Shown: positions 4,933 through 37,971, counted from the first letter of the stretch. The stretch: 39,454 bases of DNA from an uncultured Mycoplasmatota bacterium (GCA_900552975.1 UWSL01000002.1:1-39454); one strand, 5' to 3'. Made by a program: numbers and translations. Notes: generated by a model not told the origin, from the letters alone.

Positions 4933-6342
4933 ATGGAAAAAAATAATAATGGTAAGTTAAAGTTAGTTGTTCTTATTGGAATATTTGCACTTATCATGAC
5001 ATGGTTTGTAGCAGGAGGATCTTATAGTGATTCAGGAGTTTATACTGCAGGTAGCATAACAAGAGCGGGAATATTTGATTTCTTTTCGTTGTTGTTTTAT
5101 AGCTTTTACTACAGAATGCCTAATATAATGTATATCTTAGTAGTAGGTGGCTTATATGGTGTTTTAAGTAAAACTAAAGCTTATAGAAAACTTCTTGATA
5201 AAACAGCTTCTTTTGTTAAAAACAAAGAAACTATTGTGATGTTAATTACAACATTATTAATGGGACTTTATACGTCTTTGTGTGGAGATTTTTTTGTTCT
5301 ATTAATGTTTGTACCATTTATAATTAGTGTATTCTTAAGATGTGGTAAAGATAAAATTACAGCATTAAATGCAGCAGTAGGTGGTATATTCATAGGTACT
5401 GTTGGATTAACGTTAGGTACTGTAGGAATGGGAAGCTTAGCAAGCTCGTTAAGTGTAAAATTAACTGATGGAATAGGATTTAAGATAGCACTATTTGTAG
5501 CGGCTTATATTCTATATAATTTATTTGCAATTTTACATATGAACAATCTATCTAAAGAAATGGCTGAAAATGATTTGTTTGCTACTGAGTCTTTAGATGA
5601 ATCTAAAGTGAAAAAAAATAGAAAAACTAAAATTTGGCCTACTATGATAGTTATGGTAGTAGTTATAGTGATTGCTTTATTAGCTTTTATCAATTGGGAA
5701 GAAAGTTATAGTGTTGATATCTTTAAGAATGCACTTGAAGGTCTTCAAAATATAAAAGCTGGTGATGTTCCTTTTGTTTATAATATTTTAGGAAGTGTTA
5801 CTGCTTTTGGTGAATGGGATTTAGTAAACATGTCAGCTATTTTGATAATAGCAACATTGATTATAGGTTTAATGAATGGCCTAAAATTTGATGAAGTTAT
5901 TACGGAATTTGGTAATGGTATGAAAAAAATATCTAAAGTTGCTTTAATCTATGGTTTAGTATTTGTATCATTTATGGTTTGTTATGCTTATGGATGGCAA
6001 GTAACAGTAACTACTAATATATTAGGTACTAAGTTTAATATGTTTAGAGTATTAATTGCAGGATTCTTTATTGCTGTAATGTGTGTTGATCCAGAATTTA
6101 TAACATATATTTTGGGAACTCATCTTTCAACAACCTTTGTTAGTGATTTAGTAGCTACAAATTTGATAATGGGTGCAGCATATTCTTTAGCCTTAATTAT
6201 TTCACCAACTAGTTTCTGGTTGATGATGATTTTAACTTATTTGGATATTCCATTTAAGGACTGGTTAAAGTATATTTGGAAATTAGCTTTAGCGTTATTA
6301 ATAATATTTGTTTTAATATTTTCAATAATGTGTTTTATGTAA
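4933..6342 (+). CDS. Polytopic membrane protein, probable YfcC/DcuC-type (C4-dicarboxylate anaerobic carrier family) transporter
   Basis: GGGAGG RBS. More than 10 hydrophobic segments. The N-terminal pattern LIMTWFVAGGSY ... YILVVGGLYGVLSKTKAY resembles the YfcC family (LTWIIPAGxY ... IGG...V...TGA). The family call is by eye only. An extended -10 (TGtTATAAT, 4907-4915) lies upstream. Confidence 0.5.
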   Translation: MEKNNNGKLKLVVLIGIFALIMTWFVAGGSYSDSGVYTAGSITRAGIFDFFSLLFYSFYYRMPNIMYILVVGGLYGVLSKTKAYRKLLDKTASFVKNKETIVMLITTLLMGLYTSLCGDFFVLLMFVPFIISVFLRCGKDKITALNAAVGGIFIGTVGLTLGTVGMGSLASSLSVKLTDGIGFKIALFVAAYILYNLFAILHMNNLSKEMAENDLFATESLDESKVKKNRKTKIWPTMIVMVVVIVIALLAFINWEESYSVDIFKNALEGLQNIKAGDVPFVYNILGSVTAFGEWDLVNMSAILIIATLIIGLMNGLKFDEVITEFGNGMKKISKVALIYGLVFVSFMVCYAYGWQVTVTTNILGTKFNMFRVLIAGFFIAVMCVDPEFITYILGTHLSTTFVSDLVATNLIMGAAYSLALIISPTSFWLMMILTYLDIPFKDWLKYIWKLALALLIIFVLIFSIMCFM

Positions 6343-6396
6343 AAAGAAAAAGTAATTTTTTCTTTTTTTTTGCATATTATTAGTAAGGTGATAAAA

Positions 6397-6750
6397 ATGC
6401 AAGAAGATTTATTTTTGATAGCTGAACAAGAAATGAAGGAGTTGCGTAATCCGTATGTAGGAACGGAACATTATTTTCTAGCTTTTTTAAAAAACAATGA
6501 TTTAAAAACTATTAATTATGATACTTTTAAGAGAACAATAAAAAAAGTAATAGGTAGTTGCTATAAAGAAACAGAGTATGTTTTATATACTCCTTATTTA
6601 AGAAAATTAAAAAATAGTTCTAATAATGATTTGGATAATGTATTAGAAATATTAAGAAATACAGATAGTATTGTATATAATATTTTAATTAGTGAAAAAT
6701 ATAATATAGAAGATATTTTCGAAGAGATTAAGAATACTTATAAGGGTTAG
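6397..6750 (+). CDS. Small Clp N-terminal (Clp_N repeat) domain protein
   Basis: ATG at 6397 follows AAGGTG; the track start at 6370 is less likely. RNPYVGTEHYFLAFLKNNDL matches the Clp_N repeat signature (yigtEHlLLall). There is no AAA+ domain. Confidence 0.6.
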   Translation: MQEDLFLIAEQEMKELRNPYVGTEHYFLAFLKNNDLKTINYDTFKRTIKKVIGSCYKETEYVLYTPYLRKLKNSSNNDLDNVLEILRNTDSIVYNILISEKYNIEDIFEEIKNTYKG

Positions 6751-6817: not shown

Positions 6818-8128
6818 ATGAAAATATATAATACATTAACTGGCAAGTTAGAAGAATTTAAAACGATAAATGATGGAAAAATAAATATGTATGTTTGTGG
6901 TCCTACTGTTTATAGCTATGCTCATGTAGGAAACATGTGTCCAGTTATTATTTTTGATATGGTGTATAGATATTTTAAGTATTTAGGCTACGATGTTAAG
7001 TATGCAAGTAATTTTACAGATGTTGACGACAAAATTATTAAAGCAGCAATTGAACAAGGTGTAAGTGAAAAAGAATTAACTGAAAAGTTTATAAAAATTT
7101 ATTTGGAAGATGTAAAAGCTTTGAATTGCTTAGATATTGATTATCGACCTAAAGTTACAGAAACAATGGATGAAATTATCGCTTTTATAGAACAATTGTT
7201 GGAATCTGGTCATGCTTATCAAAAAGGAGACGACGTTTTCTTTAGAATAGATTCGATAAAAGATTATGGTGAATTAAGTAAACAAATTGTTGATAATCTT
7301 GATTATGGAAAGAGAATAGATGTAGATTCTAATAAAGAAAATCCCTATGATTTCGTTCTTTGGAAAAAAACAAATGAAGGAATTACATGGGATTCTCCAT
7401 TTGGTAAAGGTCGCCCAGGATGGCATACTGAATGTGTAGTAATGATTAATAAAATATTTGGCGGTAAAATAGATATTCATGGTGGTGGAATAGATTTGAA
7501 ATTTCCACATCATGAAAATGAAATGGCTCAAAGTAAAGCGGCTTGGAATCATAAATTAGCTAATTATTGGATGCATAATGGTCATGTTTTAGTAGATGGT
7601 GTAAAAATGAGTAAATCATTAGGCAATTTTATGTTGGTAAGAGATTTACTAGATAAATATTCTTCTAATGTAATAAGATTGGGAATATTGAAAACAAGTT
7701 ATCGTTTACCTTTTGATTTTACTGATACTTTATTTGCAGAAACTAAAACAATAGATGAAAAAGTATATAATGCTTTAAAACAAGCTAATTTAGTAATTCA
7801 AATTGATAATATTAAGGTTGGTTTAACAAAGAAAGATGAAAAAATTAATGAAATAATGGATGAAGACTTTAACACTTCTAATTTAATTACCTATTTGTTG
7901 GAATTAGTAAAAGATTTAAATAATAGATTGAGAAATAAAATGGATTTTGTTGAGGTATTTGATAAAATTAATTTAATTAATTACATTTTAGGTTTGAAAT
8001 ATGATTTGGTGAAATTATCTGAAGATGATAAGAAATTGTACAAAGACTGGTTAGAATATCGTAACAATAAAGAATTTGCTAAAGCTGATGAATTAAGAAA
8101 AGAATTAGTTGAAAAAAATATATTGTAG
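6818..8128 (+). CDS. cysS: Cysteine--tRNA ligase
   Basis: ATG at 6818 lies 8 nt after GGAGA and starts MKIYNTLTGKLEEF. Motifs: CGPTVYSYAHVGN (HIGN-type HIGH motif as in Bacillus), WHTEC, KMSKSLGN. An extended -10 TGgTAAAAT sits at 6773-6781. Confidence 0.95.
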   Translation: MKIYNTLTGKLEEFKTINDGKINMYVCGPTVYSYAHVGNMCPVIIFDMVYRYFKYLGYDVKYASNFTDVDDKIIKAAIEQGVSEKELTEKFIKIYLEDVKALNCLDIDYRPKVTETMDEIIAFIEQLLESGHAYQKGDDVFFRIDSIKDYGELSKQIVDNLDYGKRIDVDSNKENPYDFVLWKKTNEGITWDSPFGKGRPGWHTECVVMINKIFGGKIDIHGGGIDLKFPHHENEMAQSKAAWNHKLANYWMHNGHVLVDGVKMSKSLGNFMLVRDLLDKYSSNVIRLGILKTSYRLPFDFTDTLFAETKTIDEKVYNALKQANLVIQIDNIKVGLTKKDEKINEIMDEDFNTSNLITYLLELVKDLNNRLRNKMDFVEVFDKINLINYILGLKYDLVKLSEDDKKLYKDWLEYRNNKEFAKADELRKELVEKNIL

Positions 8129-8137
8129 GAGGTATTA

Positions 8138-8812
8138 ATGGAAAGTTTTATTTTATATCTGCTAATATTAATAATTCCTTTGATTGCTCAAGTAAATATT
8201 AGTTCGACTTACGGGATGTATAAAGGAATTAGAAATAAGAAAAAATTAAGTGGTTTTGAAGTTGCTCGAAAAATACTTGATGAAAATGGTCTTAATGATA
8301 TGTATATTGTAGAAGTTAGAGGTAATTTAACAGACCATTATGATCCAACTCAAAAAGTTGTAAGATTATCGACGGATGTATTTCATGGAGAGACAGTTGC
8401 GGCCGCGGCAGTAGCAAGTCATGAATGTGGTCATGCAATCCAAGACAAAGAAGGGTATTCATGGTTTAGAATTCGTTCTGCTTTATGTCCTATTGTTAAT
8501 TTTATAACGTATGTAGCTTATATTTTATTTTTTATAAGTTTGATACTTCAATTTGTTGATATGTTATTGTTAGCAATAGTTATGGTCTTGGTTGGTTTGA
8601 TTTTTCAATTAGTTACTTTACCAGTAGAATTTGATGCTAGTAAACGTGCTATTGAACAAATGAAAAAATTAAAATTGTTAGATGATGGTGAAGTAGAAGG
8701 AACAAGGAAAGTTTTAACAGCGGCAGCATTGACTTATGTTGCTTCAGTATTGTCTTCTTTACTTAATTTATTGCGATTAATATTAATGTTTAATGATGAA
8801 AATAGAAATTAA
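8138..8812 (+). CDS. YugP-like putative neutral zinc metallopeptidase (Zn_peptidase_2), membrane-associated
   Basis: GGAGG RBS. HECGHAIQ zinc motif, a DHYDP segment, and two central TM helices, as in YugP-family proteins. Confidence 0.8.
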   Translation: MESFILYLLILIIPLIAQVNISSTYGMYKGIRNKKKLSGFEVARKILDENGLNDMYIVEVRGNLTDHYDPTQKVVRLSTDVFHGETVAAAAVASHECGHAIQDKEGYSWFRIRSALCPIVNFITYVAYILFFISLILQFVDMLLLAIVMVLVGLIFQLVTLPVEFDASKRAIEQMKKLKLLDDGEVEGTRKVLTAAALTYVASVLSSLLNLLRLILMFNDENRN

Positions 8813-11641: not shown

Positions 11642-12556
11642 ATGGATAAATATAATGAATTAGTTCGTAAAGAAGTAGATGATAGGATTACTGATTTACA
11701 GGTTAAAAATGGTTATTCTGTAAAGGAAGCTATAAGTTTTTATATGGATGAACTATATCAAAAGTTTGATAATGTTAGTTCAGTTATAAAAGATGAGTAT
11801 TCTTTATATAAAAATGTGTTTATTGGTGTACTTTTTATAGATGCTTATAAATTTTATTCTTATAAAACCAAAGTTCATTTGGCAACTGATGTAGATAAGG
11901 ATGTTTTCTTTCAATTGTATAATTTTGAAGATATGGATGACCTTCTATCAGAAATTAGTGCAAATCCTAATTTATTTGGGTACATGCTTAATGCAACGTA
12001 TAGCTTTTATAATATGGACAAACTTGGTAAACAAATGGTTTTGGATTCTTTAGCTTCATCAGAAAATGAATATTTGATGGGAATATTTAATCCGCACCAA
12101 TATGATGTATTAAAAAAACAAGATGAATTAAATATAGAAAATATAGTTTTTTATTTTAGAAGACAACAATTATATATGCAAAAAATCATGGAAATTGATT
12201 TTGATGATGAAGTTATATGGGAAATTATAAGTTATCTTAAATATGTGAGTATTGATAAAAAAGATGAAGTAGTAGCTTTTTATAAAGAATTAATGATAGC
12301 TGATTATAAGATGATTTGTAAAATTTTAAAAAGTGAAAATGATAAAGAACTTCAAAAAAGACTAAAATTTTATTCATGTAACGATATGCAGACTATTATG
12401 AATGAAATGAGCTTTAATCAAGATTTCTTATTTGATGTTTTGAAAAATTACATTGATGTAGTAGTTAATTTGAAAGTACCTGAATTTGACGTAGATAGTA
12501 TTAATGAACTAGATGAGAAAGATGAAGAAACTTTAAAAAAATTGTTAAAAGTGTGA
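11642..12556 (+). CDS. Hypothetical protein (304 aa), helical, acidic C-terminus
   Basis: ATG at 11642 is directly preceded by TTAGGGGGATTTTT, the same 14-nt initiation region as the gene at 8900. I recognise no family. Confidence 0.6.
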   Translation: MDKYNELVRKEVDDRITDLQVKNGYSVKEAISFYMDELYQKFDNVSSVIKDEYSLYKNVFIGVLFIDAYKFYSYKTKVHLATDVDKDVFFQLYNFEDMDDLLSEISANPNLFGYMLNATYSFYNMDKLGKQMVLDSLASSENEYLMGIFNPHQYDVLKKQDELNIENIVFYFRRQQLYMQKIMEIDFDDEVIWEIISYLKYVSIDKKDEVVAFYKELMIADYKMICKILKSENDKELQKRLKFYSCNDMQTIMNEMSFNQDFLFDVLKNYIDVVVNLKVPEFDVDSINELDEKDEETLKKLLKV

Positions 12557-12647
12557 TTTGTAATATTTTTTTATAGAAATAAATTTGAAAGAATTATTAA
12601 AAAATTATTAAGGTATTGTTATTAGGCAAAGTGCAGGTGTACTTAAT

Positions 12648-12992
12648 ATGGCTGATAAAGTTTTTAATAGTCTGGAAGAACAATAAATTTCAGAACCGTT
12701 TTTTTATGACGGCTTAGGTCTTACAAATATAAATATAGAACAAAATTTTGTTTATGACACTTTAAACTTTGATGATAATGAAAAATATCAAAGAGATGCA
12801 ATTATGAAAGAATCATTCAATCGACCTATTTATGGTCAATCTAATGAAAGTCATATTTTTATAGATAATAATGATATTGCTACAATATATGGTGAAACAT
12901 ATTTAATTCATAATGGCGATATTGGATATATTTGTAAAAATGGAAGGAATATTATAATAAATAATGTAATTGAAGATAAAAAAATGAAATAG
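12648..12992 (+). pseudogene. Small gene (~114 codons) interrupted by an in-frame TAA
   Basis: ATG at 12648 gives MADKVFNSLEEQ, then TAA (12684-12686). The same frame then continues ISEPFFYDGLGLTNINIEQNFVYDTLNFDDNEKYQRDAIMKESFNRPIYGQ... to the stop at 12990-12992. The track ORF 12804-12992 is the in-frame tail. Confidence 0.4.
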
Positions 12993-26407: not shown

Positions 26408-26779
26408 ATGGCGATAGAATTAGAAGTTACGAAAAAAGTTCGAAATAAACCGATAATAAAAAGGTTAGAATTAGAATATGGAGATATGAATTATATAATT
26501 GTTAATTTATTAGAAAATGTCATTGATGTTGATGGAAATTTATGGGAATATCAAATAGATGATGATATAAAACAAAAAATATTTGATTTAGTATGGGATT
26601 ATGCTGAATTAGATGAATTTGACTATTGGCCAGATAAAAGTAAGGATCATAAACCAATGTCACCTAAATGGAGATTAGCATTTTATGATGAGTTTGATAC
26701 GTATTATCATAAGAGTGGAGCAACTCACTATCCAGACAAATTTATGGATCTTGTAAAATTATTAAAAGATTTAAAATAA
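26408..26779 (+). CDS. Hypothetical acidic protein (123 aa)
   Basis: ORF with GGATGG upstream, tightly spaced after uvrA. No family recognised. Confidence 0.55.
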   Translation: MAIELEVTKKVRNKPIIKRLELEYGDMNYIIVNLLENVIDVDGNLWEYQIDDDIKQKIFDLVWDYAELDEFDYWPDKSKDHKPMSPKWRLAFYDEFDTYYHKSGATHYPDKFMDLVKLLKDLK

Positions 26780-30388: not shown

Positions 30389-30724
30389 ATGGCACAAAAG
30401 CAAACAAAAAAAATGCTTGAAAAAGAAGAAATAGTAGAAGAAGATGTTGCTTCTGAAGTCGAAGAAGCGGCTTTAGAAGAACAAGAAGAAGTAAGAGAAG
30501 TAAAAGAGGATAAAAAGAAAGAAAAGAAAAATAAAAAAGAGTCTTCAACTAAAGGTGATGGATATTTTAAATCATTAAATAAAGAGTTGAAAAAAGTTGT
30601 ATGGCCTAAGGGTGGAGAAGTTTTGAAATCAACTATTGCAGTAATAGTAATATGTTTGGTTTTAATAGGTTTCTTTGAATTAACTCAGTTATTAGTAGCA
30701 TTTGTGAAAGGATTGTTTGTATAA
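30389..30724 (+). CDS. secE: Preprotein translocase subunit SecE with a ~59-aa charged N-terminal extension
   Basis: The C-terminal ~52 aa, FKSLNKELKKVVWPKGGEVLKSTIAVIVICLVLIGFF, form the SecE core and TM helix. It lies directly upstream of nusG with a start/stop overlap. Confidence 0.85.
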   Translation: MAQKQTKKMLEKEEIVEEDVASEVEEAALEEQEEVREVKEDKKKEKKNKKESSTKGDGYFKSLNKELKKVVWPKGGEVLKSTIAVIVICLVLIGFFELTQLLVAFVKGLFV

Positions 30725-31263
30725 TGGAAAAAGAATGGTATGTTGTTAATACTTATAGTGGTCATGAATCAAAAGTAAAAGAAAAATTGGAATCAAGAGC
30801 AGTCTCAATGGGAATGCAGGATCATATTTTTAGAGTAATAATTCCTGAAACTACAGAAGTAGAAGTGAAAGACGGCGTAAAGAAAGAAAAAGTAAAAAAA
30901 ATGTTTCCTGGTTATGTTTTAGTAGAAATGATCATGTCAGATGAAGCTTGGTATATTGTACGTAATACTCCAGGAGTAACAGGATTTATAGGTTCATCAG
31001 GACATAAAGCCAAACCTACGCCATTGATGCCTCAAGAAATAGATCATATTTTGGCTACGATGGGTATGAGTAGAGTTGATATTGAGTCTGAAATGACTGT
31101 TGGATGTAAAGTAACAATAATTGATGGTCCATTCAAAGGAATGACAGGAACTGTTGATAGTATTGATACTGAAAATAATAGATTAAATGTTTTAATAGAT
31201 TTATTTGGACAAGAAACACCTGTTGAAGTTGAATTATTTCAAGTTAATAAAATACAAGAATAA
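30724..31263 (+). CDS. nusG: Transcription termination/antitermination factor NusG
   Basis: WYVVNTYSGHESKVKEKLE, FPGYVLVEM, and the KOW motif (GPFKGMTGTV). Confidence 0.95.
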   Translation: MEKEWYVVNTYSGHESKVKEKLESRAVSMGMQDHIFRVIIPETTEVEVKDGVKKEKVKKMFPGYVLVEMIMSDEAWYIVRNTPGVTGFIGSSGHKAKPTPLMPQEIDHILATMGMSRVDIESEMTVGCKVTIIDGPFKGMTGTVDSIDTENNRLNVLIDLFGQETPVEVELFQVNKIQE

Positions 31264-31288
31264 GCTTTGGAGACAAAGCTTTTTTTGA
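31262..31288 (+). terminator. nusG terminator
   Basis: AAGCTTTG-gaga-CAAAGCTT perfect 8-bp stem followed by T7. Confidence 0.75.
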
Positions 31289-31313
31289 CTTTTAGTATCT
31301 CATTTAATATAAT
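31285..31313 (+). promoter_or_regulatory. Near-consensus sigma-A promoter of the 996-aa ORF
   Basis: TTGACT (31285-31290), 17-nt spacer, TATAAT (31308-31313). Confidence 0.65.
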
Positions 31314-31346
31314 ACGTGCTGAGTTTTAAGAAACAGGGGGAAGCTT

Positions 31347-34337
31347 ATGTATGGATGTGAAATTTATCGAAAAGATTGCAATGAAATATTAAAAGAATAT
31401 CAAAATAAGGTAAATGCAGGTCAAAGGAATTATGCTAAAAGAGATTTATTGTTAGTAAGAAATGCATATAAAACTCTTGAGATTATAGAAAACCCTTTAT
31501 TAAATTTTAACCAGTATTTTCAATATATAGAAAGTTTAAATTTAAATCAAGAAGAATATCGTAAATTGATGCGCAATAAAATGTTTCCCATGGGTGGTTC
31601 AATTAAAGCGTGGATTGTTACTATTTTTGAATTTTGTCAAAATGGTAAAATAAAAGATCAGGAAATTGTTTATAAAGTTTTTTCTATATATCAAAAGGTT
31701 GTAATGGATCAGATTGATGATCTGGCTAGTTCTTTAATGAGATTATCTTTTTTACTAGGATATAATGATGAACAATTGGCTGCGTTTTTACATATTAAAT
31801 TGTTTATGCTTCAGAAATTAAAAAAAAGAAAAGAGCCTTTGAAGGAACGAATTTTTAATAAAATATTAGAAGCGGAGAAAGAGTATGATAAAAATGTCTT
31901 TGAAGATTGGCAATTGTTAGAAATAGAAAATTTTTTTCTAAAATTAAAAAAATGTGATTATGAAAAAAGGATACACAAAGAAAAAAAAGTTTCTAAAAAA
32001 ATTGAGAAATCTAGAGTTAAACAAAAAGAAATTACTTTTCAAAATTGGTTGAAAATTAATGGTGTTGTTGAGTTACGTGCAAAATGTTTAGAGATTAAAG
32101 AATATTTAAAGCGAAATGACGTTGATCGAATTACTAATGATGTTAAATTTCTAGATGGAACATATATGAACCCTTTATTACGAAAATTTATTCATTTTAA
32201 TAATTCTGCTTCACTTGATGTTCCGTTAGAAGTAAAAGAATATTTATCTAGAGAATTAGCTGAAATTATTGAATTGTTTTTTAAAAATAAAAATAATAAA
32301 TTAAATAAAAATAGTAATTTAAATTATGGTTTAGCATTAGATAAAGTTTTGTTTAGTTTTGATATATCTTATATTGCTTTTTTTGAACATACCCAAATTC
32401 CAATGAGTGTTATAAGTGGAATATGTCGAAATGAATTTTTTCCATCAGCAGAGCTTGTTATGAAAATAATTGCTTTATTAAATGATCTTAGTTTCTTACC
32501 TTTAGATGATTATCAATCTGTTATATTAAAAGAAGCCAAAGAAATTTACGGAGAATTGTACCTTGAAGTTTATGGTAAGAAAAATAAAGAAATTAATAGT
32601 TATGTGTTGTATTCTAAAGAAAAGCTTTTAATTTTTGAAGAAAAGATACAAGGCGTTGATTTAATCATACTTAATTCTGTTAAGAAAAATAAGTTTGATT
32701 GGTATTTAAAATGGTTAACGTTTTATTATATATGTGAGGTAGAAGAAAGAAAACCGAACAAAAATGAATATTTTTATGATGGAACAATAATTTTTAAATG
32801 GATTTTTACTCAAAAAAATACTTTAGATAAAAGTAATTATTGCTTAGAGTTATCTAAAGATCAAATGTTTTTGTTAGACATGTTAATGGAAAAAGTTGAT
32901 GAATTAAATTATAAAAAACATAATGTTGATGAGTTAAAAATTATTGAAAATTTTGATTCCATTATTAATGAATATACTGAAAGAATTAAAAATGGTGAAG
33001 ATTTATTAACAACTTTGAATAATGATACTTCTACTATTTGGAATTTGTTACGTAAGATGATTTTTATGGGAAATTGGTTTAATGATGAACAAATTTTAAA
33101 AGTTAAACAACTTAGAAATATGGCGATTGTTAATCATTATGGATACAATAGAATGAATGGAATAAAATACGAAGAAAGTTTTGGATTTAGATTAATTTCT
33201 TTAATGGATTCTTTTAATATTTCAATAGTAGAGTTTGCTAAAATGGTAGATTGCTCTGTGCCTTCAATAACATCGTATCGCCGTAATGATTCTATTCCAT
33301 CTGTTGAAATTATAAAGAAAATGAAAAATGTGATTTTACAATTGCAAATGCAAGCAATTAATATTGATCAACAACAAGAAATTATAGTTTTTGAAAGTTT
33401 TTTAAATAAAGTAGCTTATGATAAAAAAACGAGAACTAATGGTCAGGATAAAAATAATTATTTGCAATCTTTTGATAAGTATGTTTACAGAAAAACAGGA
33501 AATGTTTATTTAGATATTGAAAAAGGTATTTTAACTAAAGTGAAAGAAAATAACGTTGATTGGTATAATGATTTCTTGATAGTTTGGGAAGCTTTAAAAA
33601 ATAGTGATACTTCTTTGTATGATGGTAATAAAGGATATTTAAATAAATTTGGATGGTATTTAGATGCAATGCGAGATTTAAATCATGATAAATTAAGCTA
33701 TGAACAAATTGTTCTTCTTAAATATTTAACTATAACTGAAGAAAAAAATAAATTTAAATTTTTAAAAGCTAAAGTAAAAAAAAGAATTAATGAAGTAGAA
33801 TATTTTATAGACGTAAATGGTAGACTTCCGAAAAATGGCGAGGTTGAATTAGATGATCATATAGATGCATATTTATTTTACCGTGATTTGAGAGATAAAT
33901 ATTGGGGATTTCTTCCTACTAGGTATAGATGGTTTGATGATGAAATGTTTGTTATGACTAAGGAATTACTTGTTAAAGTGAATAAACTTGAATATGGATT
34001 AGAAAATAAAGATGATTATAAAGAAAATAATAACTACTATATTGGTAATTTTTTAAATTATTTACGTATCAGTTTAGGTTTTTCTAATAGAGTTTTACCT
34101 AGTATATTGAATTTACCACGCGAAATTGTTACAAAAATTTATAAAAATGAAATACCTTTAAATTTAGAGTATCTTACTTTTCTTTTAAAATATTTTGGTG
34201 ATTTTACAAAAAATGATTTACGTAGAGATCAATTGGTTGATATTGATAATTTTTATAAATTTATAAATACCTTGAATACTAGAAAAAATAACGAATTAAA
34301 TTTGAGTTTGGTGTATTCGCCAGAAGAAGAAAATTAA
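31347..34337 (+). CDS. Large (996 aa) uncharacterised protein with four degenerate XRE/Cro-type HTH modules alternating with helicase-associated-domain-like helical modules
   Basis: GGGGGAAG RBS. HTH_3-like segments: aa ~125-175 (LASSLMRLSFLLGYNDEQLAAFL); ~327-380 (YGLALDKVLFSFDISYIAFFEHTQIPMSVISGICRNEFFPSAELVMKII); ~612-665 (FGFRLISLMDSFNISIVEFAKMVDCSVPSITSYRRNDSIPSVEIIKKM); ~899-950 (IGNFLNYLRISLGFSNRVLPSILNLPREIVTKIYKNEIPLNLEYL). W/Y-rich modules include KFDWYLKWL...LSKDQMFLLDML and VDWYNDFLIVWEAL...FGWYLDAMR...LSYEQIVLLKYL. Confidence 0.75.
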   Translation: MYGCEIYRKDCNEILKEYQNKVNAGQRNYAKRDLLLVRNAYKTLEIIENPLLNFNQYFQYIESLNLNQEEYRKLMRNKMFPMGGSIKAWIVTIFEFCQNGKIKDQEIVYKVFSIYQKVVMDQIDDLASSLMRLSFLLGYNDEQLAAFLHIKLFMLQKLKKRKEPLKERIFNKILEAEKEYDKNVFEDWQLLEIENFFLKLKKCDYEKRIHKEKKVSKKIEKSRVKQKEITFQNWLKINGVVELRAKCLEIKEYLKRNDVDRITNDVKFLDGTYMNPLLRKFIHFNNSASLDVPLEVKEYLSRELAEIIELFFKNKNNKLNKNSNLNYGLALDKVLFSFDISYIAFFEHTQIPMSVISGICRNEFFPSAELVMKIIALLNDLSFLPLDDYQSVILKEAKEIYGELYLEVYGKKNKEINSYVLYSKEKLLIFEEKIQGVDLIILNSVKKNKFDWYLKWLTFYYICEVEERKPNKNEYFYDGTIIFKWIFTQKNTLDKSNYCLELSKDQMFLLDMLMEKVDELNYKKHNVDELKIIENFDSIINEYTERIKNGEDLLTTLNNDTSTIWNLLRKMIFMGNWFNDEQILKVKQLRNMAIVNHYGYNRMNGIKYEESFGFRLISLMDSFNISIVEFAKMVDCSVPSITSYRRNDSIPSVEIIKKMKNVILQLQMQAINIDQQQEIIVFESFLNKVAYDKKTRTNGQDKNNYLQSFDKYVYRKTGNVYLDIEKGILTKVKENNVDWYNDFLIVWEALKNSDTSLYDGNKGYLNKFGWYLDAMRDLNHDKLSYEQIVLLKYLTITEEKNKFKFLKAKVKKRINEVEYFIDVNGRLPKNGEVELDDHIDAYLFYRDLRDKYWGFLPTRYRWFDDEMFVMTKELLVKVNKLEYGLENKDDYKENNNYYIGNFLNYLRISLGFSNRVLPSILNLPREIVTKIYKNEIPLNLEYLTFLLKYFGDFTKNDLRRDQLVDIDNFYKFINTLNTRKNNELNLSLVYSPEEEN

Positions 34338-34347
34338 TAAAAAAATC

Positions 34348-34376
34348 TTGCATTTATTAATATAGTGTGTTAGTAT
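34348..34376 (+). promoter_or_regulatory. rplK-rplA promoter (extended -10)
   Basis: TTGCAT (34348-34353), 17-nt spacer, TGtTAGTAT (-10 at 34371-34376). Confidence 0.55.
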
Positions 34377-34486
34377 CTTAGGTGCAATTATGTATATTTG
34401 TATATATGTGATTAGCTTAAGTGGGAGGGAATAGCGGATTGCCCTATACCACTTTCGCGAAAAAAATTTTTTAGGAGGTGTTTTTC

Positions 34487-35065
34487 GTGGCAAAAGAAGT
34501 CGTAAAGAAAATTAAATTACAAATTCCTGCTGCAAAAGCAACACCAGCACCACCTGTAGGAACTGTTTTAGGACCTGCTGGAATTAATCTAGGTGAATTT
34601 TGTACAAAATTCAATGATGCTACAAAGGATAAAGCTGGAGATATCGTTCCAGTAGAAATCAGCATTTATGATGATAGAAGCTTTGATTTCGTACTAAAAA
34701 CTCCACCAGCTGGTTTCTTAATAAAGAAAGCTGCAAAAATTCAAAAAGGAAGCACAAAAGGTGCCAACGAAGTTGTTGCAACAATTACTGTTGATGAATT
34801 AAGAAAAATTGCAGAAACTAAGTTGCCTGATTTAAATGCATATGATGTAGAATCAGCAATGAAAACTATTGAGGGAACTGCAAGAAATATGGGTGTAGCT
34901 GTTAAAGGATTAAATGATGCTGAGTTAGCAGAACAAGAAAAAGAAGCTAAAGAAGAAGAGATTAAAGAAGCTAAGAGAGAAGCTGAATTAGAAAAACTTG
35001 AAGCTGAAGTAAATGAATCTCACGAAGTAGAAGTAATTAACGAAAATAAAGAAACAGAAGAATAA
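34487..35065 (+). CDS. rplK: 50S ribosomal protein L11 with a 51-aa Glu/Lys-rich C-terminal extension
   Basis: GTG at 34487 lies 8 nt after AGGAGG and gives [25 protein letters not shown], the canonical L11 start; the track start at 34478 lies inside the RBS. The conserved body is 141 aa, followed by [17 protein letters not shown]...NKETEE. Confidence 0.93.
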
Positions 35066-35134: not shown

Positions 35135-35833
35135 ATGAGAAAGTTAGGTAAAAAGTATGTGGAAGCTTCTAAAAAAGTAGATAAGAATACTCTTTATACT
35201 AAAGAAGAAGCAATTAAATTAGTCAAAGAAACTGCCATAACTAATTTTGATAGTACTGTTGAAGTAGCTTTTAAATTAAACTTAGATACTAAAAAAGCTG
35301 ATCAACAATTAAGAGGATCTATGGTATTACCTAATGGAACTGGAAAAACTAAAAAAGTATTAGTAATTGCTAAGGGAGAAGCTGCTGAAGCTGCTCGTAA
35401 AGCAGGTGCTGATTATGTTGGCGATACTGACATGATAGAAAAAATCCAAAATGAAAACTGGTTTGACTATGATGTTATTGTTGCTACTCCAGACATGATG
35501 GCTCAATTAGGTAAAATTGGTCGTGTTTTAGGACCTAAAGGTTTAATGCCAAACCCTAAAACTGGTACAGTTACTATGAATACTCAAAAAGCAGTTGAAG
35601 ACATTAAAAAAGGTATGGTTAGTTATAAAACTGATTCTTATGGAAATGTACATTCAGTTATTGGTAAAGTTTCATTTGATGATGCTAAATTAATCGAAAA
35701 CTTAAATTATGTTGTAAATACAATTAATAAAGCAAAACCAGCTGTTGTAAAAGGAAAATATATTGAAAATATTTCAATTTCTAGTACAATGGGACCTGGC
35801 ATAAAAATTGACAAAAATTCTTTTGACATTTAA
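35135..35833 (+). CDS. rplA: 50S ribosomal protein L1
   Basis: [43 protein letters not shown], and [22 protein letters not shown]. Confidence 0.97.
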
Positions 35834-35851
35834 TTGTTGATAGAATATAAT
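35823..35851 (+). promoter_or_regulatory. Consensus sigma-A promoter of rplJ-rplL
   Basis: TTGACA (35823-35828), 17-nt spacer, TATAAT (35846-35851). It overlaps the rplA stop codon. Confidence 0.7.
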
Positions 35852-35857
35852 AAATTT

Positions 35858-35976
35858 GTTGAAAAAAAGCGTTTTCCAAAGACAGCAAGTACAAAATAAA
35901 TCTTGCCGAGGATACTTATTTTATAACATTTTGAAATGTTGTATTTTAAGCTTTTCCTTGGGGGAAAAGCTTTTTT
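35858..35976 (+). promoter_or_regulatory. Ribosomal protein L10 leader (autoregulatory attenuator) with a terminator hairpin
   Basis: AAAGACAGCAAG...CTTGCCGAGG resembles the conserved L10(L12)4-binding core of Firmicutes rplJ leaders. It is followed by the hairpin AAGCTTTTCC-ttggg-GGAAAAGCTT (35948-35972) plus T-run (T6, 35971-35976, overlapping the stem end), just before the rplJ RBS. Confidence 0.6.
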
Positions 35977-35998
35977 AAAATCCTAAAGGAGGGAAAAA

Positions 35999-36986: not shown

Positions 36987-37484
36987 GTGAAACTTAATAA
37001 CCATGGTTGGGGAATGAAAAATATGATTATTTATTGTTGTATATTACTTCTCTTTTTAATTATTGCAGTTTGTAATGTACATTCTTTATATAAAAATATC
37101 GAAGATGGTCATAAAAGTTATAATAATCAAAATAAACAAAACAATAAATTAAATAATACAACTAATAAAAACCAAAATAATAATGGAACTACGAATGGTG
37201 GAAATTCAAATGTTTATATTGATTATAGTATTTATCATGATTATGAAAAAAAGATGGCTGAAGTTGCTAAGAGTTATGTGATAGAAAATCGTGATGCCTT
37301 ACATACGGGAATTGCTTCGGTTTTATTAACAGAACTGGTTACGAATGGTTATATCAATCAGTTATATGATCAGGTTAATAATACTGAATGTTCTGGTTAT
37401 GTTAATGTATGGGATGATGAGAGTGGAACCTATCAAAGTCAAGCTTACTTGAAATGTACTAATTATACAACAGAAGGATATTAG
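36987..37484 (+). CDS. Membrane-anchored, Asn-rich secreted protein with a C-terminal two-Cys domain (paralog 1)
   Basis: GTG start 8 nt after GGAGG. One N-terminal TM helix, a poly-N/Q linker, and the C-terminal domain ...LVTNGYINQLYDQVNNTECSGYVNVWDDESGTYQSQAYLKCTNYTTEGY. Confidence 0.65.
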   Translation: MKLNNHGWGMKNMIIYCCILLLFLIIAVCNVHSLYKNIEDGHKSYNNQNKQNNKLNNTTNKNQNNNGTTNGGNSNVYIDYSIYHDYEKKMAEVAKSYVIENRDALHTGIASVLLTELVTNGYINQLYDQVNNTECSGYVNVWDDESGTYQSQAYLKCTNYTTEGY

Positions 37485-37494
37485 GAGGTATAGA

Positions 37495-37971
37495 ATGAAA
37501 AAAAGTAATAAGAAAAAAAAGAGAAAGAGTTTAAAAAAAATAATAAAAACTATTTTGACTAATATTAAGAACTTTTTTGTTAATATATATATTAAATTTA
37601 AGAAATTACCTAAAAAATTGCAAAAATTAATTATTTTGTGGTTAGCTATTTTTATTATAATTGTTGTTTTGATATTTTTTTGTGGTACAAATAAAAAAAT
37701 TGTTGTTAATCATGAAAAAATGGAAAATGATGTTGTATCTGCAGCTTTAGACTATGTAAAAACTCGTGAATTATATCCAACAAAAGATCAAAAAATGCGT
37801 TTAAATATAAATACCTTGATTGAAAATGGAGATTTGTATGATGATGCTGTTGATAAAAGTTGTATAGGTTATGCGCTAATTTTTTATGATGAGGATAAGA
37901 GTGATTATAATGTAAAGGCTTATTTAAGTTGTAAAAATTATGAAACGGATGGTTATACTTTTATTAAATAG
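37495..37971 (+). CDS. Membrane-anchored protein with the same C-terminal two-Cys domain (paralog 2)
   Basis: AGGAGG RBS. A Lys-rich N-terminus, one TM helix, and the C-terminal ...LIENGDLYDDAVDKSCIGYALIFYDEDKSDYNVKAYLSCKNYETDGY, which aligns with paralog 1. Confidence 0.65.
   Translation: MKKSNKKKKRKSLKKIIKTILTNIKNFFVNIYIKFKKLPKKLQKLIILWLAIFIIIVVLIFFCGTNKKIVVNHEKMENDVVSAALDYVKTRELYPTKDQKMRLNINTLIENGDLYDDAVDKSCIGYALIFYDEDKSDYNVKAYLSCKNYETDGYTFIK

Follow-up and report, generated by a model that had tools for sequence, protein, structure and literature searches.

Few bacterial gene strings are as conserved as secE-nusG-rplKAJL, and the gap between nusG and rplK is normally empty. Among the regulators that invite comparison with the protein described here, XRE-type (Cro/C1) repressors possess one helix-turn-helix (HTH) domain in a chain of ~70-300 amino acids (aa) and act as dimers, while the RNPP/Rgg regulators combine an XRE HTH with a ~230-aa helical-repeat domain and reach ~285 aa in total. 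A further building block is the helicase-associated (HA) domain, and that of BVU_0683 is reported to be DNA-binding (Mills et al. 2013, as cited in PMC12191111). The subject of this study is a stretch of 39,454 nucleotides (nt), hereafter the window, from an uncultured Mycoplasmatota bacterium (GCA_900552975.1, UWSL01000002.1:1-39454), in which nusG and rplK are separated by an open reading frame (ORF) at 31347..34337. Its 996-aa product is referred to below as X; the ORF, like the parts of X, its flanking genes and its expression signals described below, lies on the + strand. An earlier reading of this DNA, made without database searches (the sequence-only reading), had described X as a multi-HTH protein inserted between nusG and rplK.

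The analysis of the window and of related loci, which are cited below by their labels (L001 to L016), shows that X is a genuine, constrained and lineage-restricted gene. The domain types of its product are known, its architecture and family are described in none of the sources searched, and a long-term, expandable occupant of the nusG-rplK gap is unusual. The reading we favour, though the balance of probability is about even, is that X binds DNA multivalently in a regulatory or architectural role, and binding of nucleic acid is suggested by the nature of its domains. According to this reading, a strong sigma-A-type promoter of its own, lying after the secE-nusG terminator and ahead of the rplK promoter, would drive transcription of X, and the chain of X would offer up to ten small domains belonging to types that elsewhere bind nucleic acid. 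One polypeptide could then bind several half-sites or distant sites, unlike the usual dimer of a single-HTH repressor, and X might act as a global or architectural regulator through multivalent DNA binding.

Modular architecture of X

X consists of four tandem homologous modules. When the four closest sequences are used, aa 327-627 align with aa 612-910 (E 3.2e-7), and in the self-alignment of the 15-sequence family profile aa 52-693 align with aa 241-980 (E 3.7e-28), the two-unit and three-unit offsets being significant as well (E 1.9e-8 and 2.6e-7). Each module runs from one or more HA-like helical domains through an XRE-type HTH to a conserved helix 'LRxDQxxDxxxFxxxL'. Modules 3 and 4, in which the repeat unit measures ~285 aa, have a second HA-like domain ('DWY...W...LSxEQxxLL'), for a total of four HTHs and six HA-like units (1+1+2+2), and the first HA-like domain of the modules carries an 'F/Y-x-D-G-x4-W' turn. 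Conservation is even over the modules, with a mean pairwise column identity of 0.21-0.34.

The AlphaFold (AF2) model of X built with 15 family members, which replaced a first run with 4 sequences (mean predicted local distance difference test score, pLDDT, 56), is all-alpha. Because its pLDDT is 80.5 and its predicted template modelling (pTM) score 0.39, the single domains are confident and their mutual arrangement is not. Both checks proposed with the sequence-only reading, internal-repeat detection and an AlphaFold model, were informative: the repeat statistics place the modules where they had been expected, and the model displays an identical four-helix HTH pattern four times. Beside the local HTH matches described below, full-length Foldseek searches of X against the PDB and BFVD gave just non-specific alpha-solenoid matches, which are non-significant (TM ~0.1).

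Four degenerate XRE-type HTHs had been proposed at ~aa 125, 327, 612 and 899, and the repeat statistics together with the AlphaFold model agree with that proposal. HTH3 (33168..33350, aa 608-668) is of the Cro/C1 (XRE) type and matches Pfam HTH_3 (PF01381) at aa 619-659 with an E-value of 1.1e-6 and 29 bits, the cut-off being 23; its PDB profile matches are to XRE domains. HTH2 (32310..32495, aa 322-383) follows the pattern NYG...IPxSxISxxxxNxxxPS, in which Y327, G328, I351, P352, N362 and P366 are nearly invariant, and Pfam HTH_3 is found on its orthologue P0003 (aa 333-373) at a sub-threshold 20.7 bits. Sub-threshold matches to Pfam HTH_19 were obtained for HTH4 (34029..34205, aa 895-953) on the orthologues P0004 (aa 896-948) and P0006 (aa 892-933), together with a PDB profile match to the 434-repressor design 1sq8. 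Direct profile support thus exists somewhere in the family for three of the four HTHs. The most degenerate, HTH1 (31707..31886, aa 121-180), is recognised only by its internal-repeat alignment to HTH3 and HTH4 (E 1.9e-8 and 2.6e-7) and by its helix pattern in the AF2 model. All four domains are in register in the internal-repeat alignment, which makes HTH1, HTH2 and HTH4 homologues of the bona fide HTH3.

Local Foldseek matches to solved XRE domains comprise DdrO (6rnz; probability 1.00, root-mean-square deviation (rmsd) 1.2 Å over 53 columns), HigA (2ict) and ClgR (3f51; 0.99 for both), the output being silent on which of the four HTHs was matched. Phage Cro/CI-like proteins among the viral models of BFVD also match X locally, with an rmsd of 0.8-1.5 Å, and the PHROG profile phrog_2328 ('transcriptional repressor') was matched by 5 of 11 family members (E 2.5e-6), in addition to phrog_8 and phrog_3. 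The amphipathic helix after HTH4, 'LRRDQLVDIDNFYKFI' (34206..34286, aa 954-980), has its equivalents at aa 181-205, 384-412 and 669-695. Residues L958, R959, D961 and Q962 of this helix are invariant or nearly so in the family, and it resembles the '...YLLxRTDQ' end of a stand-alone XRE protein encoded in L016.

The six HA-like units are distributed as follows. Module 1 has one at 31494..31706 (aa 50-120; 'F.xGGS...W'), for which the family-profile self-comparison gives alignments to modules 2 and 4, and module 2 has one at 32058..32294 (aa 238-316; 'KFLDG....L'). The first HA-like domain of module 3 (32682..32912, aa 446-522; 'DWYxKW...YFYDGxxxxKWxxTQ...LSKDQ') is the best-conserved segment of the whole family; the second (32928..33146, aa 528-600) aligns with the second of module 4 in the self-comparison. 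Module 4 contains units at 33546..33746 (aa 734-800; 'DWY...FGWY...LSYEQxxLLKYL') and 33762..33998 (aa 806-884; 'EVEYFIDVNGRLPKNGE...'). Pfam HA has a gathering score of 28.4 bits and found no match on X, whether whole or in segments; 1 of 11 family members gave a sub-threshold match, P0008 at aa 246-299, in the module-2 unit (18.9 bits, E 0.002). Per-module profiles were also compared with the sequence of the solved HA domain 2KTA by hhalign. Four of the six units match it weakly, all in the same register: the second unit of module 4 (P 1e-4, probability 57%), the first unit of module 4 (P 0.002, 55 columns), the first unit of module 3 (P 0.006) and the unit of module 2 (P 0.04), with no hhalign match for module 1 or the second unit of module 3. 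Profile searches of PDB sequences with the HA-like modules did not retrieve 2KTA, nor does it appear among the 50 Foldseek matches listed for the model of the whole 996-aa protein, and a phage 'helicase associated domain' protein is found among the weak BFVD matches of X (E 0.17). The helical units are accordingly termed HA-like, a resemblance that appears real but weak and short of HA membership. In the description of W/Y-rich HA-like modules given by the sequence-only reading, their presence is borne out by the repeat statistics and the AlphaFold model, their alignment to 2KTA is in register but weak, their simple alternation with HTHs gives way to the 1+1+2+2 arrangement, and membership of Pfam HA fails at the sub-threshold scores.

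Searches with NCBIfam, PADLOC and segment-wise Pfam added nothing to the whole-protein Pfam HTH_3 match of X. No enzymatic domain was found in X by the Pfam, NCBIfam and PADLOC scans, in agreement with the lack of visible enzymatic motifs remarked on earlier, and domain scans gave no helicase or nuclease domain in X or its neighbours. The protein is predicted to be soluble, with no transmembrane segment (maximum KD19 1.45), and its isoelectric point (pI) of 8.3 lies in a family range of 5.9-8.6. As had been stated, no characterised protein with such an architecture was retrieved from the databases and literature searched; architecture and family are undescribed in Pfam, NCBIfam, PHROGs, PADLOC, PDB, BFVD and that literature.

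The locus and its expression signals

Upstream of X lies nusG (30724..31263, 179 aa), which was taken from the ORF list and is supported by Pfam NusG and KOW matches on the identical gene in L002-L004. The intrinsic terminator of secE-nusG (31262..31288) is an 8-bp hairpin, AAGCTTTG-GAGA-CAAAGCTT, followed by a T-run, and equivalent hairpins of other sequence occupy the same place in L005, L006, L008, L009 and L010 as well as in L012, L014 and L015, which lack X. Overlapping the T-run is the -35 box of the X promoter (TTGACT 31285-31290, a spacer of 17 nt, TATAAT 31308-31313), which agrees with the sigma-70 consensus at 11 of 12 positions and ranks second among the consensus matches in the 5.8 kb scanned. 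The arrangement TTGACA/TTGACT-N17-TATAAT is kept 5' of the X homologue in all five other lineages, and terminator and promoter are therefore common to six lineages, alike in structure and unlike in hairpin sequence. The X ORF begins with an ATG, 6-11 nt downstream of the Shine-Dalgarno sequence GGGGGA, and runs uninterrupted through the 996 codons, coding for a protein of 119 kDa.

On the 3' side, the rplK promoter (34348..34376; TTGCAT-N17-TAGTAT with a TGn extension, TGT) scores 8 of 12, under the cut-off of the scanner, yet it is kept in all seven related loci, those without X included. The nusG terminator, the X promoter and the separate rplK promoter of the sequence-only reading are thus all present at the positions assigned to them. 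The scan of the window gave no hairpin and no terminator between the X stop codon and the rplK promoter, and none was found 3' of the last X copy in any of the X-bearing loci compared. As X is without a terminator of its own, its transcript probably continues into rplK-rplA, and the unit is autonomous at its 5' end only; the autonomous transcription unit suggested earlier has its own start and lacks its own end.

The rplK leader (34377..34486) can form two hairpins, one with the stem AAGUGG-GAGGG...GCCC-CCACUU and a second that encloses the Shine-Dalgarno sequence. It is near-invariant over seven lineages (window; also L005, L006, L008, L009, L010, L012, L014 and L015), and because it hardly varies, covariation is unobtainable. 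No match to Rfam was detected, even at E<=1, and the leader may be an undescribed autoregulatory leader of the L1/L11 operon. Downstream of it, rplK (34487..35065) codes from a GTG start for an L11 protein of 192 aa with an E/K-rich C-terminal extension.

As noted earlier for this locus, no insertion sequence (IS) ends or flanking repeats were found around X in a repeat search of the window. Domain scans and repeat search likewise revealed no transposase, integrase, terminal inverted repeats or target-site duplication for X. The 9-mer TTAGTATCT does flank X, occurring at 31292-31300, just 3' of the -35 box of the X promoter, and at 34370-34378 in the -10 region of the rplK promoter; it was rejected as a target-site duplication, not being kept at the upstream junction in other lineages, and is probably a chance pair or a remnant of promoter duplication.

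The possibility that X is an artefact, either a chance long ORF in AT-rich DNA or the product of a chimeric contig, can be regarded as effectively refuted. All data are metagenomic, to be sure, but the low GC content (22-25%) makes stop codons frequent, not rare, and gives the idea no positive support. Moreover, the same X ORF with the same flanks has been assembled independently from many samples and sources (Logan, ENA, NCBI, JGI), synonymous substitutions in it exceed non-synonymous ones, and the AF2 model obtained with the 15-sequence alignment is confident.

Distribution and history of the X family

A word-indexed search of 5.8 billion proteins returned three relatives of X only, with 98%, 97% and 57% identity. 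When the search was repeated with an 11-sequence alignment, just the same three close relatives were recovered, probably because low-complexity K/N/E words crowded the candidate list. When 1.84 billion cluster representatives were searched exhaustively with phmmer, 12 clusters were detected, of which the distant ones have 820-1015 aa and a full-length identity of 25-28%. Every deposited copy bears the label 'hypothetical protein [Bacilli bacterium]', and the JGI metagenome scan gave only a near-identical copy (OIYO01000082.1). By tblastn, no relatives were found in phage and plasmid collections; the single IMG/VR match was dismissed as spurious, since it lies in the ORF of a SleB-like cell-wall hydrolase. 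With 12 clusters in a small clade, all of them hypothetical, X does not belong to a widespread characterised family, and its suggested lineage specificity is borne out by homologues confined to that clade of uncultured gut Bacilli.

Among named NusG proteins, the closest (90% identical) is that of a Candidatus Coprovivens sp. This genus corresponds to UBA11963 of GTDB, in the family CAG-1000 of the order RF39 (PMC8035907). The hosts of X are relatives of Ca. Coprovivens, that is, uncultured gut Bacilli of RF39/CAG-1000, and not Erysipelotrichia, which had been considered before.

Every X homologue with readable context is situated in the nusG-rplK gap, in one to three tandem copies (L001-L011). 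One copy is present in the close relatives L001-L005 and L011, in L006 and L007 (982 aa; GCA_017472465.1) and in L008 (1015 aa). Three full-length tandem paralogues of 975, 961 and 932 aa, with 33-43% mutual identity, are found in L009 (1387-10099), where the second has a promoter of its own, and two shorter ones of 623 and 819 aa, with fewer modules, in L010 (8114-12460). In the latter locus, ~350 bp of non-coding DNA (12461-12808) precede the rplK promoter and might represent a decayed further copy. A sub-clade of reduced-genome gut Bacilli (RF39/CAG-1000) has thus kept a 3-kb, strongly promoted gene family in this gap and expanded it in places to 9 kb of tandem paralogues, which makes the family a cheap marker locus for the sub-clade.

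In three relatives, L012 (GCA_051891735.1), L014 and L015, nusG directly adjoins rplK in an otherwise largely similar gene order, although the Pyr_redox_2 gene seen in the window and most X-bearing loci is absent. The empty-site junction is clean, reading terminator-TTGACTTGCAT...TGTTAGTAT in L012 and L014 and TTAACTTGCAT in L015, and the two -35 boxes overlap in these X-less sites (TTGACTTGCAT). In the more distant L016 (NusG 86% identical) the gap is filled by unrelated cargo (7593-8617), a 132-aa HNH-like gene, with a Pfam HNH score of 20.5 bits just under the cut-off, and a 209-aa gene without known function. The same locus also carries an HTH gene and a PT-HINT (intein-like) gene at 5315-6677, between the sigH-like gene and secE, which suggests that the gaps of the secE-nusG-rplK cluster are favoured sites of insertion in this group.

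From nine concatenated flanking proteins a neighbour-joining tree was built and rooted on the single outgroup L016; it resolved two clades. Clade A (bootstrap 100%) is formed by the window, L005 and L008, all with X, whereas clade B (92-98%) unites the X-bearing L006, L009 and L010 with the X-less L012, L014 and L015, the latter three being monophyletic (100%). Most simply, X would have been gained once in the common ancestor and cleanly lost once, with lineage-specific duplications besides. The survey of relatives proposed with the sequence-only reading therefore finds X in the gap across the clade, an empty gap in L012, L014 and L015 and other cargo in L016. Of the insertion between nusG and rplK that it had described, the location stands and the one-off event does not: X represents a family that is inherited vertically, evolves fast and is fixed at this site in one to three copies, with one loss.

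The empty and alternatively filled gaps raise the question of whether X is selfish or nearly neutral cargo that settled in a permissive terminator-promoter gap and brings the host little benefit. The clean empty sites, the HNH-endonuclease-like gene and its neighbour in the same gap of L016, and the fast evolution of X speak for this view. It is nevertheless rather unlikely, as the transposase, integrase, terminal repeats and target duplication of a mobile element are all missing, the distribution follows the host tree with its one gain and one loss, the lineages have kept the consensus promoter, and a 3-kb ORF has been held intact by purifying selection while lineages diverged to 24-28% identity. 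As for an insertion sequence, transposon or integrative element in particular, X was rejected as such, having no such domains or repeats and the same location in every genome.

Rate and mode of evolution

Compared with the window, the flanking proteins are well conserved, with identities of 90-99% for NusG, 87-97% for L1, 83-98% for UvrA, 61-92% for LGT and 64-96% for the SigH-like protein, while X is 57% identical in L005 and 24-28% in all others, at a NusG identity of 91-96%. Its amino acid change is several times faster than that of even the least conserved neighbours. In the L001/L005 comparison, against the 57%-identical orthologue, the X ORF gave a dN of 0.31 and a dS of ~1.05 (dN/dS ~0.3), and the C-terminal 96 codons of nusG a dN of 0 and a dS of 0.49; within species, the dN/dS of X is 0.18-0.23, compared with 0-0.25 for the neighbours. 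With dN/dS values of 0.18-0.31, X is under purifying selection, and pervasive positive selection was rejected as the cause of its fast divergence (dN/dS 0.2-0.3).

Such a record brings to mind a domesticated array of phage-type repressors. X would in this case be a constitutive, polyvalent immunity repressor, each HTH being directed at a different foreign operator, that silences phages or mobile elements without an enzymatic effector and diversifies as its modules diverge and the gene is tandemly duplicated or truncated. The high divergence, changing copy number, dispensability and variability of the recognition helices would find an explanation here. Outside Pfam, phage repressor families indeed give the best profile matches, the strong constitutive promoter is conserved, the recognition helices vary on a conserved scaffold, and rapid divergence, one to three copies, truncated paralogues and one loss form a pattern typical of conflict genes. 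However, the overall dN/dS is 0.2-0.3 and not above 1, none of the 11 family members examined matches a PADLOC-DB defence-protein model, no relatives occur in the phage, plasmid and IMG/VR collections, and XRE HTHs match phage repressor profiles generically. The repressor array consequently seems rather improbable; were X nonetheless a conflict gene, a novel kind of immunity would be indicated.

Possible functions of X

Several observations weigh against X being a multivalent DNA-binding protein. Only HTH3, one of the four HTHs, passes the Pfam threshold, being the sole domain of X to do so, and the HA similarity is sub-threshold in every family member. Among orthologues, the exposed positions of the recognition helices are variable and the structural HTH positions conserved. 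The HTH modules are neutral or acidic (net charge -3 to +2) and the linkers strongly basic, the module charges being uninformative on sequence-specific DNA binding. The window has no operator-like or IS-like repeats above the AT-rich background, and thus no repeated operator-like motif, X is dispensable in one nested sub-clade, and its rate of divergence is unusual for a core nucleoid protein.

Some of these features would equally suit a protein-protein scaffold or adaptor, the degenerate HTH and HA-like domains of which recruit partners, possibly NusG or the L11/L1/L10/L12 stalk. The position of X between nusG and rplK is fixed in every lineage that carries it, co-transcription with rplKA is probable given the missing 3' terminator, and the neutral or acidic HTH modules with their variable recognition helices, as well as the alpha-solenoid scaffolds that alone were returned by full-length Foldseek (non-significantly), point the same way. 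On the other hand, NusG and the stalk proteins are 87-99% identical where X is 24-57% identical, and an obligate partner would be expected to conserve its interface; X is also absent from the nested sub-clade. The gap of L016 hosts unrelated cargo, for which reason the position of X is weak evidence of functional linkage. A scaffold role is therefore considered unlikely, though not negligibly so.

If X is a multivalent DNA-binding protein, the reading favoured here, its hosts, none of them ever cultured, would possess in it a candidate global regulator or nucleoid organiser specific to their lineage, and it would provide a natural single-chain example of tandem HTH recognition.

Neighbouring genes

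Several further features of the window and the related loci were recorded. At its C-terminus (34910-35065), L11 continues past its Pfam domains for ~50 E/K/A-rich residues; most relatives keep this extension, but the L11 of L008 measures just 150 aa. SecE is extended at the N-terminus by ~55 K/E-rich residues (30389-30560), and the length varies between strains (111 vs 117 aa). The rplL-rpsL position is occupied in many Firmicutes by rpoB-rpoC. In the window two genes of 165 and 158 aa without Pfam assignment are located there (36987-37484 and 37495-37971), the first with weak DUF matches, and related loci have pairs of genes without Pfam matches at the same position, alike in size and position. 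A perfect 12/12 consensus promoter (35823-35851) and the L10 leader (Rfam RF00557, 59 bits), together spanning 35823-35985, precede rplJ; this leader is ordinary and confirms that the regulatory RNAs of the operon are intact. Directly 3' of uvrA lies a 123-aa gene with no Pfam match (26408-26779), and a Pfam-less gene of similar size follows uvrA in most related loci, but not in L016.

Comparison with known systems

The cargo of the L016 gap, an HNH-like gene and its companion, sits in exactly the same terminator-promoter gap as X. The two have no sequence relationship, and X differs in being vertically inherited and in having no homing-endonuclease or recombinase features.

The ~285-aa repeat of modules 3 and 4 served as a lead towards the RNPP/Rgg regulators, which are of the same overall length. 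This identification was rejected: Pfam TPR or Rgg_C matches are lacking, the HTH follows the helical part instead of preceding it, and structures of PlcR, PrgX and Rgg are absent from the top Foldseek matches.

With the HA proteins (PF03457; BVU_0683 aa 627-691, 2KTA) X has in common multiple short units of ~60-75 aa, putatively of three helices, and the pattern W/F..x..L..F....P....(DG)...W...QR.....LS.EQ..LL. It differs from them in that no helicase or nuclease is attached and that two of the six units show no direct similarity, and its interleaving of HA-like domains with HTHs is seen in nothing else retrieved.

Unlike the single-HTH XRE repressors, X carries four HTHs in 996 aa, set within larger repeats, and no known oligomerisation or sensor domain. 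It is nevertheless to the XRE/Cro-C1 repressors (HigA 2ict, the N-terminal domain of DdrO 6rnz, ClgR 3f51 and phage CI/Cro) that X is tied by the HTH fold and the 'xNxxxPS' turn, and small XRE proteins of Firmicutes share with X the C-terminal ending '...LLxRxDQ'.

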